Below, piece after piece: positions 11,494 through 35,063 of a stretch of DNA of 64,000 bases. The first letter of the stretch is position 1; each line of letters begins with the position of its first letter. Location of the stretch: assembly GCF_965641715.1 (NCBI RefSeq), contig NZ_OZ282453.1; one strand, given 5' to 3'. Origin of the DNA: Escherichia coli (GTDB lineage: Bacteria; Pseudomonadota; Gammaproteobacteria; Enterobacterales; Enterobacteriaceae). Below the pieces are notes generated by a model, which was not told where the DNA came from, ran no database searches, and worked only from the letters and a program-made list of their open reading frames with translations. Position numbers and translations under genes: made by a program.

Positions 11494-11570
<77 letters not shown>

Positions 11571-11603
11571 TCACCGTACTGCTTTTACTTCATCAAATTT
11601 GAT

Positions 11604-11680
<77 letters not shown>

Positions 11681-11713
11681 TCACCGTACTGCTTTACTTC
11701 ATCAAATTTTAAT

Positions 11714-11790
<77 letters not shown>

Positions 11791-11998: not shown

Positions 11999-13096
11999 AT
12001 GAAAGGACGTTGGGTAAAGTACCTTCTTATGGGCACGGTTGTGGCAATGCTTGCCGCCTGCTCTTCCAAACCAACCGATCGCGGACAGCAATATAAAGAC
12101 GGGAAATTTACCCAGCCTTTCTCTCTGGTGAACCAGCCAGATGCCGTTGGCGCGCCGATTAACGCCGGTGATTTTGCCGAGCAAATTAACCATATCCGTA
12201 ATTCGTCACCGCGTCTGTATGGCAACCAGAGTAATGTTTATAACGCGGTGCAAGAGTGGCTGCGCGCAGGCGGTGATACCCGCAATATGCGTCAGTTCGG
12301 CATTGATGCCTGGCAGATGGAAGGTGCCGACAACTATGGTAACGTGCAGTTTACAGGCTATTACACGCCGGTAATTCAGGCGCGCCATACCCGCCAGGGC
12401 GAGTTCCAGTATCCTATTTACCGTATGCCGCCAAAACGTGGTCGTCTGCCGTCTCGTGCGGAGATCTACGCGGGGGCATTGAGTGATAAATATATTCTCG
12501 CTTACAGTAACTCCCTGATGGATAACTTCATTATGGATGTGCAGGGTAGTGGGTATATCGACTTTGGTGATGGCAGTCCGCTTAACTTTTTCAGCTATGC
12601 AGGGAAAAACGGTCATGCCTATCGCAGCATTGGTAAGGTGCTGATCGACCGTGGCGAAGTGAAAAAAGAAGATATGTCGATGCAGGCGATTCGTCACTGG
12701 GGCGAAACACACAGTGAAGCCGAGGTTCGCGAGCTGCTGGAACAGAACCCGTCTTTCGTCTTCTTTAAACCGCAATCTTTTGCACCGGTGAAAGGGGCAA
12801 GTGCGGTGCCGCTGGTTGGCCGTGCTTCTGTTGCCTCTGATCGTTCAATTATTCCGCCAGGTACAACCTTGCTGGCAGAAGTGCCGCTGCTGGATAATAA
12901 CGGCAAATTTAATGGTCAGTATGAACTGCGTCTGATGGTGGCACTGGATGTCGGTGGCGCAATCAAAGGCCAACACTTCGATATCTATCAAGGGATCGGG
13001 CCGGAAGCCGGACACCGCGCAGGTTGGTACAACCACTATGGACGGGTTTGGGTGCTGAAAACGGCTCCGGGCGCAGGTAACGTCTTTAGCGGCTGA
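11999..13096 (+). CDS. mltA: Membrane-bound lytic murein transglycosylase A (lipoprotein)
   Basis: ORF track starts 11717 and runs through the tRNA genes; true start at MKGRWVKYLLMGTVVAMLAACSS (lipobox) at 11999. Confidence 0.9.
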   Translation: MKGRWVKYLLMGTVVAMLAACSSKPTDRGQQYKDGKFTQPFSLVNQPDAVGAPINAGDFAEQINHIRNSSPRLYGNQSNVYNAVQEWLRAGGDTRNMRQFGIDAWQMEGADNYGNVQFTGYYTPVIQARHTRQGEFQYPIYRMPPKRGRLPSRAEIYAGALSDKYILAYSNSLMDNFIMDVQGSGYIDFGDGSPLNFFSYAGKNGHAYRSIGKVLIDRGEVKKEDMSMQAIRHWGETHSEAEVRELLEQNPSFVFFKPQSFAPVKGASAVPLVGRASVASDRSIIPPGTTLLAEVPLLDNNGKFNGQYELRLMVALDVGGAIKGQHFDIYQGIGPEAGHRAGWYNHYGRVWVLKTAPGAGNVFSG

Positions 13097-13124: not shown

Positions 13125-13310
13125 ATATGACAGGGTGAGGGGTAACCTCACATCCTGATTATTGACTAAGTGCGCGTTGTTCATGCCGGATGCGGCGTGA
13201 ACGCCTTATCCGGCCTACAAATCATGCAAATCCAAAATATTGCAGGAGTTATGTAGGCCTGATAAGCGTAGCGCATCAGGCATTTATGCGTTTAGGGTGA
13301 GGGATAACCT
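13125..13310. repeat. BIME-like cluster of REP palindromes between mltA and tcdA
   Basis: gccggatgcggcgtgaacgccttatccggcctac and gtaggcctgataagcgtagcgcatcaggc REP units flanked by gtgaggggtaacctcac-type palindromes. Confidence 0.6.
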
Positions 13311-16275: not shown

Positions 16276-16481
16276 AAAAAAAAGCACCGCAATTAGGCGG
16301 TGCTACATTAATCACTATGGACAGACAGGGTAAATGTACAGGAAGTGAAAAAAGGTAGCTTTGCTACCATGGTCTGAATCGCAGACCAATTGCAAACACA
16401 ACAACACAACATCACAACCGTAAGCCAAAAGTTCACCAGAACACGCATTCCGACAAAACTTTTCGTTCCGGCTCAGGAAGT
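16276..16481 (-). ncRNA. gcvB: GcvB small regulatory RNA (Hfq-dependent, represses amino-acid/peptide transporters)
   Basis: Minus-strand sequence starts ACTTCCTGAGCCGGAACGAAAAG, contains the GU-rich TGTGATGTTGTGTTGTTGTGTT region, and ends in a GC hairpin plus U8; divergent from gcvA. Confidence 0.85.
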
Positions 16482-16609
16482 GCCGCCACTATAGGTATTT
16501 GCTGGTAGAAGCTCAACGGACAATTTATAATGGCTCAGATTAAAAAAACTAATAGGTTACACAGTGTGATCTAATTGTTAAATTCATTTAACATCAAAGT
16601 TTAAAAGCC

Positions 16610-17527
16610 ATGTCTAAACGATTACCACCGCTAAATGCCTTACGAGTTTTTGATGCCGCAGCACGCCATTTAAGTTTCACTCGCGCAGCAGAAGAGCTTT
16701 TTGTGACCCAGGCCGCAGTAAGTCATCAAATCAAGTCTCTTGAGGATTTTTTGGGGCTAAAACTGTTCCGCCGCCGTAATCGTTCACTCCTGCTGACCGA
16801 GGAAGGGCAAAGCTATTTCCTCGATATCAAAGAGATATTTTCGCAATTAACCGAAGCGACGCGTAAACTCCAGGCCCGTAGCGCCAAGGGGGCGTTGACG
16901 GTCAGTTTACTCCCCAGTTTCGCCATTCATTGGTTGGTTCCGCGACTTTCCAGCTTTAATTCAGCTTATCCGGGAATTGACGTTCGAATCCAGGCGGTTG
17001 ATCGTCAGGAAGATAAGCTGGCGGATGATGTTGATGTGGCGATATTTTATGGTCGGGGCAACTGGCCGGGGCTACGGGTGGAAAAACTGTACGCCGAATA
17101 TTTATTGCCGGTGTGTTCGCCGCTACTGCTGACTGGCGAAAAACCCTTGAAGACCCCGGAAGATCTGGCTAAACATACGTTATTACATGATGCGTCACGC
17201 CGTGACTGGCAGACATATACTCGTCAATTGGGGTTAAATCATATCAACGTTCAGCAAGGGCCAATTTTTAGCCATAGCGCCATGGTGCTGCAAGCGGCTA
17301 TTCACGGGCAGGGAGTGGCGCTGGCAAATAACGTGATGGCGCAATCTGAAATTGAAGCCGGACGTCTTGTTTGCCCGTTTAATGATGTTCTGGTCAGTAA
17401 AAACGCTTTTTATCTGGTTTGTCATGACAGCCAGGCAGAACTGGGTAAAATAGCCGCCTTTCGCCAATGGATCCTGGCGAAAGCCGCTGCTGAACAAGAA
17501 AAATTCCGCTTTCGTTATGAACAATAA
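16610..17527 (+). CDS. gcvA: LysR-family regulator of the glycine cleavage system
   Basis: 305 aa with N-terminal LysR HTH; recognised as GcvA. Confidence 0.95.
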   Translation: MSKRLPPLNALRVFDAAARHLSFTRAAEELFVTQAAVSHQIKSLEDFLGLKLFRRRNRSLLLTEEGQSYFLDIKEIFSQLTEATRKLQARSAKGALTVSLLPSFAIHWLVPRLSSFNSAYPGIDVRIQAVDRQEDKLADDVDVAIFYGRGNWPGLRVEKLYAEYLLPVCSPLLLTGEKPLKTPEDLAKHTLLHDASRRDWQTYTRQLGLNHINVQQGPIFSHSAMVLQAAIHGQGVALANNVMAQSEIEAGRLVCPFNDVLVSKNAFYLVCHDSQAELGKIAAFRQWILAKAAAEQEKFRFRYEQ

Positions 17528-34652: not shown

Positions 34653-35019
34653 GTCGACAGGGAGTCAGACAACGAAGTGAACATCAGGATGATGACACTT
34701 CTGAAGGACACACCAGGATGGTGTTTCAGGGAAAGGCTTCTGGATGAAGCGAAGAGGATGACGCAGGACGCGTTAAAGGACACCTCCAGGATGGAGAATG
34801 AGAACCGGTCAGGATGATTCGGTGGGTCAGGAAGGCCAGGGACACTTCAGGATGAAGTATCACATCGGGGTGGTGTGAGCAGGAAGCAATAGTTCAGGAT
34901 GAACGATTGGCCGCAAGGCCAGAGGAAAAGTTGTCAAGGATGAGCAGGGAGCAACAAATGTAGCTGGAATGCTGCGAAACGAACCGGGAGCACTGTGAAT
35001 ACAGTGCTCCCTTTTTTTA
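34653..35019 (+). ncRNA. csrB: CsrB small RNA (CsrA-sequestering RNA)
   Basis: Starts GTCGACAGGGAGTCAGACAACGAAGTGAAC; about 18 GGA-containing CAGGAUG-like motifs; ends in hairpin gggagcactg...cagtgctccc plus T7. Confidence 0.9.
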
Positions 35020-35063
35020 TTCCTGCTATCCTTCGCGGCAGTTTTTCTTATTGAGGTTGCTTT

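Follow-up and report, generated by a model that had tools for sequence, protein, structure and literature searches.

The window analyzed here is a stretch of Escherichia coli DNA 64,000 nt long, and its positions 16276-16609, singled out in an initial annotation made from the sequence alone, comprise an RNA gene (16276-16481) and the entire gcvB-gcvA intergenic control region. When the whole window was searched against Rfam 15 at gathering thresholds, six hits were returned; the one to GcvB (RF00022) covers 16276..16481 of the minus strand and, at 197 bits (E = 3.7e-46), far exceeds the family's gathering score of 42. The match spans positions 1-204 of the 204 in the model and is not truncated. 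The genes and control elements of the locus are as follows.

16276..16481, minus strand: gcvB, a 206-nt small regulatory RNA gene, with +1 at 16481 and the 3' end at 16276 (RF00022 and K-12 b4443)
16482..16609, no strand: gcvB-gcvA intergenic control region, 128 bp, 66% A+T (from the sequence)
16488..16516, minus strand: predicted gcvB promoter, sigma-70-like (promoter scan)
16539..16553, no strand: dyad ATTA-N7-TAAT, candidate GcvA (LysR-type) site (read from the sequence; centre at about -65 from gcvB +1)
16610..17527, plus strand: gcvA, LysR-type regulator, 305-aa ORF (same protein as K-12 GcvA; matching genomes annotate the gene as gcvA)

Comparison with the K-12 reference (MG1655, NC_000913.3), in which gcvB (b4443) is annotated as an ncRNA of 206 nt at 2942696..2942901, revealed that 205 of the 206 bases are shared. 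The neighbors of the gene are also the same as in K-12: gcvA is divergent and starts 128 bp from the gcvB +1 on the opposite strand, and gcvB converges on ygdI, whose protein is identical to that of K-12. The likeness to K-12 GcvB further includes orientation, the seed regions R1, R2, and R3, and the terminators t1 and t2 described below; the two loci differ by A28G within the RNA (16454) and by two intergenic substitutions, at 16562 and 16605. Of 5,426 complete E. coli genomes, 5,425 carry the 501-nt region containing gcvB, where it overlaps genes annotated as gcvA and ygdI. Based on the full-length Rfam match, the near-identity with K-12, the shared neighbors, and conservation across Enterobacterales (see below), the locus is almost certainly the orthologue of E. 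coli gcvB, which encodes a trans-acting, Hfq-dependent small RNA, and none of the observations speaks against this reading. The gene has thus been described before, and its setting here is the canonical one.

The initial annotation had called a roughly 206-nt minus-strand RNA upstream of and divergent from gcvA and had named a covariance-model search with the Rfam GcvB family and an alignment to K-12 gcvB as the ways to check it; both agree with the call in length, strand, and placement. Its further claim, that protein-only annotation would miss the gene, also held, as the K-12 record annotates gcvB and, among the records examined, the PGAP-annotated RefSeq records NZ_AP018488.1 and NZ_CP033250.1 carry no feature at the gcvB locus. 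GcvB is among the best-studied bacterial small RNAs, and the importance of the locus beyond its correct annotation is small; nevertheless, the RefSeq E. coli records examined that carry PGAP annotation leave gcvB out, so that default or protein-only annotation overlooks a global regulator.

The predicted gcvB promoter consists of a -35 element TTGAGC, a 17-bp spacer, and a -10 element TATAGT (9 of 12 matches), and the -10 element ends 7 nt before the gcvB +1. A footprint of 93 distinct gcvB-gcvA spacers revealed that the region from about -72 to -1 relative to the gcvB +1 is conserved, with both hexamers inside conserved blocks, and that the gcvA-proximal half of the spacer is much less conserved. 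The ATTA-N7-TAAT dyad also lies inside a block that is at least 95% conserved. The recognition site of LysR-type regulators is usually near -65, and we infer that this dyad, at about -65, is the putative GcvA recognition site. Both intergenic substitutions that distinguish the window from K-12 fall between the candidate dyad and gcvA, where the footprint is weakly conserved. The arrangement resembles that of OxyS and oxyR, where an Hfq-dependent, multi-target small RNA is likewise divergent from a LysR-type regulator and the two share one control region; the two systems differ in regulon and have no known sequence relationship. A GcvA binding region has been reported upstream of gcvB (PMC1557403), and published work shows that GcvA, with glycine, activates gcvB transcription and that GcvA and GcvR together repress it (PMC1557403; PMC9299463).

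The anatomy of the RNA, numbered from its 5' end, can be laid out in the window as follows.

16423..16473, minus strand: stem-loop 1 (SL1), RNA 9-59 (Rfam consensus structure; compensatory changes in the apical helices)
16393..16419, minus strand: R1, the G/U-rich seed linker, RNA 63-89 (G/U content; invariance of RNA 79-90)
16370..16388, minus strand: stem-loop 2 (SL2), RNA 94-112 (Rfam consensus; also in the minimum free energy (MFE) fold)
16348..16368, minus strand: SL3 (RNA 114-128) followed by U6, the internal Rho-independent terminator t1 (terminator scan and PMC1557403)
16338..16347, minus strand: core of the R2 stretch, RNA 135-144, CACUUCCUGU (upper-case consensus in the Rfam model)
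16305..16337, minus strand: stem-loop 4 (SL4), RNA 145-177, with the R3 seed and the second SroC site in its loop (Rfam consensus; identical to K-12)
16320-16326, minus strand: R3 and second SroC site, about RNA 156-162 (positions from PMC9299463 and PMC4474525)
16276..16304, minus strand: terminator t2, hairpin RNA 178-199 and U8 tail (terminator scan; Rfam consensus)

The GU-rich R1 region of the initial annotation is readily recognized: RNA 71-89 (16393-16411) is a run of 19 nt made up of G and U only, and the 24-nt windows starting at RNA 63-66 are 96% G/U. In the Rfam consensus, R1 is an unpaired linker between SL1 and SL2, and its mean unpaired probability is only 0.58 in single-sequence folding. 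The terminator scan detected t1 as GGTAGCAAAGCTACC followed by TTTTTT at 16368..16354, so that the hairpin with its U6 ends near RNA 134. At the end of the gene, the intrinsic terminator that had been noted from the sequence was found as an 8-bp stem with 6 G-C pairs (16304..16283) and a 6-nt loop, running into eight terminal U residues at RNA 199-206 (T7 in the scan output). Thus, the two features on which the initial annotation had been staked, a covariance-model hit and the terminator hairpin, are both present. The two predicted Rho-independent terminators would be expected to give rise to RNAs of ~130 nt and 206 nt. In Hfq-dependent small RNAs, the U tail serves as an Hfq-binding element, and, by analogy, the 3' end formed at t2 probably binds Hfq. 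The MFE of the whole RNA, -60.5 kcal/mol, was lower than that of all 200 dinucleotide shuffles (z = -3.3).

To place the locus among its relatives, homologues were collected by an exact-pattern scan with the R2 core in one genome per species, which yielded at least 120 loci. This set reached only Enterobacterales, with Vibrio and Pasteurella GcvB outside the sample, and the loci listed range from Escherichia to Yersinia, Serratia, Proteus, Providencia, Photorhabdus, Xenorhabdus, and Edwardsiella. Among the matches listed, 98 loci have enough DNA upstream for the position of gcvA to be assessed, and in 97 of these gcvA is divergent and upstream, usually at a distance of 115-131 bp from the predicted gcvB start. 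The sole exception, L069:3688-3724 on contig CAMLQK010000002.1, comes from a metagenome-assembled genome (MAG) labelled Candidatus Saccharibacteria, is without an upstream gcvA, and is either a chance 37-bp match or part of a mis-binned contig.

From the matches listed, the window and 85 non-redundant homologues were aligned with MAFFT (86 sequences in total), and the consensus pairs of the Rfam model were projected onto this alignment as the structure for covariation. Overall, 85.2% of cells are paired, compared with 34-50% when the partners are slid by 1-3 columns. Changes on both sides occur in 16 pairs, and the observed covariation was reached by 0 of 500 column shuffles; because the sequences are related, this count is not a probability, and it is the slid controls that carry the argument. 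The apical helices of SL1 show compensatory changes among the 86 Enterobacterales sequences, and the t2 stem is paired in 96% of cases. Pairing of helix 5 is only 66%, with many cells classed as "other," because MAFFT sets SL2 and the apical part of SL1 of distant genera out of register; the conclusion does not hinge on these columns. Covariation in the alignment thus supports the predicted secondary structure. With respect to the seed regions, RNA 79-90 in R1 is invariant in the 86 sequences and was absent from the search pattern. RNA 132-172 (R2/R3) is also invariant in the alignment and identical to K-12, a stretch that is partly fixed by the search pattern; because the R2 pattern was used to fetch the homologues, the invariance of R2 is partly circular and is not independent evidence. 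Overall, GcvB of Salmonella and other enterobacteria (e.g. Yersinia pestis, PMC1557403) shares with the window the divergent gcvA, the two Rho-independent terminators, the invariant G/U-rich R1 and R2 core, and the helix layout with compensatory changes but differs in the sequences of the apical part of SL1 and of SL2; in the more distant genera, the R1 linker is missing the 6 nt with which it begins in E. coli, and SL2 is in a shifted register.

These elements can be set beside the published account of GcvB. The t1 and t2 terminators and their products of 130 nt and 206 nt have been described, the GcvB RNAs are untranslated, and repression of oppA and dppA requires the 206-nt form (PMC1557403). 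Three seed regions are known: most targets are bound through the G/U-rich R1, few through R2 despite its high conservation, and lrp, phoP, and others are regulated through R3 in SL4 (PMC9299463). GcvB is itself the target of SroC, which derives from the gltI 3' UTR and pairs with GcvB at two short sites, on the 5' side of SL1 (G14 and G18) and in the SL4 loop (G156, G160, and C162); protection was seen at G14, G18, and G156, the pairing was verified with compensatory mutants at G14 and G160, and it triggers decay of GcvB by RNase E (PMC4474525).

Applied to the window, this mechanism would run as follows. When glycine is abundant, GcvA would activate gcvB from the shared intergenic region, and GcvA together with GcvR would otherwise repress it. 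Transcription would end at t1, giving an RNA of about 130 nt, or at t2, giving the active 206-nt form. The single-stranded R1 and, less so, R2 and R3 would then pair with C/A-rich sequences close to the ribosome-binding sites of many target mRNAs for amino acid and peptide transport and metabolism (dppA, oppA, gltI, cycA, lrp, and others), and this seed pairing would block their translation. The SroC sponge would pair with SL1 and R3 and lead to decay of GcvB by RNase E. As far as can be read from the DNA, every sequence element needed for the published mechanism is intact here. From K-12 gene order, the window presumably also contains sdaC, argA, relA, eno, csdA, and fucP. A search for GcvB targets in the window revealed that none of these genes is named in the regulon paper (PMC9299463).

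We considered whether the locus could be read in other ways. An ORF of 46 codons lies inside gcvB.

16308..16448, minus strand: 46-codon ORF with its AUG at RNA 34 (ORF list)

If this ORF were translated into a small protein, GcvB would be a dual-function RNA and small mRNA, and an ATG is indeed present at the same place in 41 of the 86 homologues. However, the ATG is missing in the other 45, and where it is kept, the ORF varies from 9 to 61 codons, so that there is no conserved reading frame. Further, the AUG is within the stem and loop of SL1 and has no obvious Shine-Dalgarno sequence, and GcvB has been reported to be untranslated (PMC1557403). The lack of conservation of the ORF among the 86 sequences agrees computationally with that report, and we rejected the dual-function reading, the likelihood of which we regard as negligible. 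Scarcely any weight can likewise be given to the view that the region is merely a regulatory spacer and terminator serving the gcvA promoter and ygdI rather than an independent RNA gene. The t2 hairpin does lie 16 bp past the ygdI stop codon, and the intergenic DNA serves gcvA too, but a spacer leaves unexplained the full-length RF00022 match, the four covarying helices, the invariant seeds, and the predicted promoter that gcvB has of its own. Moreover, the terminator scan found no plus-strand terminator for ygdI. A third reading concerns the one base of gcvB that differs from K-12.

16454, minus strand: A28G, RNA position 28 being G instead of A (comparison with K-12 gcvB)

Position 28 pairs with position 47 in SL1, and the pair is G·U here compared with A-U in K-12. 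Position 16454 is also the sole mismatch over 1,601 bp to the closest O157:H7 genome. That gcvB is functionally altered in this strain, with A28G changing the stability, processing, or SroC sensitivity of the RNA, has several points in its favor. The exact 206-nt sequence with G28 is rare, occurring in 2 of 5,425 complete E. coli genomes (ECCHD184 and HZ13), and one SroC site resides in SL1 (PMC4474525). In ViennaRNA predictions, replacing A28 with G28 raises the MFE from -62.1 to -60.5 kcal/mol, a cost of about 1.6, and the ensemble energy from -66.6 to -64.3 kcal/mol, and the predicted pairing probability of 28:47 falls from 0.98 to 0.08. Based on these models, G28 may have a slight effect on RNA stability. 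However, G·U is a standard pair, and the 28:47 pair covaries freely between species: in the 86-sequence alignment, the combinations across genera are UA (24), AU (6), GU (4), UG (2), and CG (1), and G28·U47 is natural in three other genera. The notion that A28G falls at a functional site was rejected because position 28 coincides neither with the SroC positions reported in the literature (G14/G18 and G156/G160) nor with any of R1, R2, and R3. With G28, R1, R2, and both SroC sites are predicted to be as accessible as with A28. Equally, G28 is neither unique nor an artefact, given its presence in ECCHD184 and HZ13 and the G28·U47 pair in the three genera.

The flanks of the allele bear on the same matter. 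G28 is on K-12-like flanks in the two matching genomes and on O157-like flanks in the window, so that at least two backgrounds carry it. This implies that the mutation recurred or was moved by recombination, and it resembles the behavior of a tolerated polymorphism. We therefore consider a functional alteration of gcvB by A28G very unlikely. The more specific proposal, that G28 recurs under selection and loosens the upper SL1 helix at its base, also commands very little credence; if it were true, G28 might alter GcvB turnover or the invasion of SL1 by SroC and thereby shift the expression of amino acid transporters. Overall, A28G is most likely a minor natural variant that is functionally neutral or nearly so.

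Several other observations concern the surroundings of gcvB in the window. A 24-kb query comprising positions 5000-29000 matched each E. coli genome at a median of 35 separate places, which points to a short dispersed repeat (REP, IS, or tRNA) within it. The same query reached only about 99.2% identity to the nearest of the 5,426 complete E. coli genomes, indicating that the source strain is absent from that collection. At 11494-11790 on the minus strand, there are three tandem tRNA-Met genes (anticodon CAT) with a 110-bp period and identical Rfam tRNA model scores, which we take, from K-12 gene order, to be probably the metZWV initiator-tRNA cluster. A short Rfam match to the ES036 (CssrF) small RNA at 13218-13260 on the plus strand (46.5 bits; gathering score, 37.6) falls in the gap between a long plus-strand ORF ending at 13096 and the following ORF (13335), and it may represent a terminator-like element instead of a genuine small RNA. 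Finally, the window contains a full-length CsrB small RNA at 34662-35021 on the plus strand (RF00018, 384 bits; gathering score, 71), likewise a well-known regulatory RNA that would be missed by protein-only annotation.
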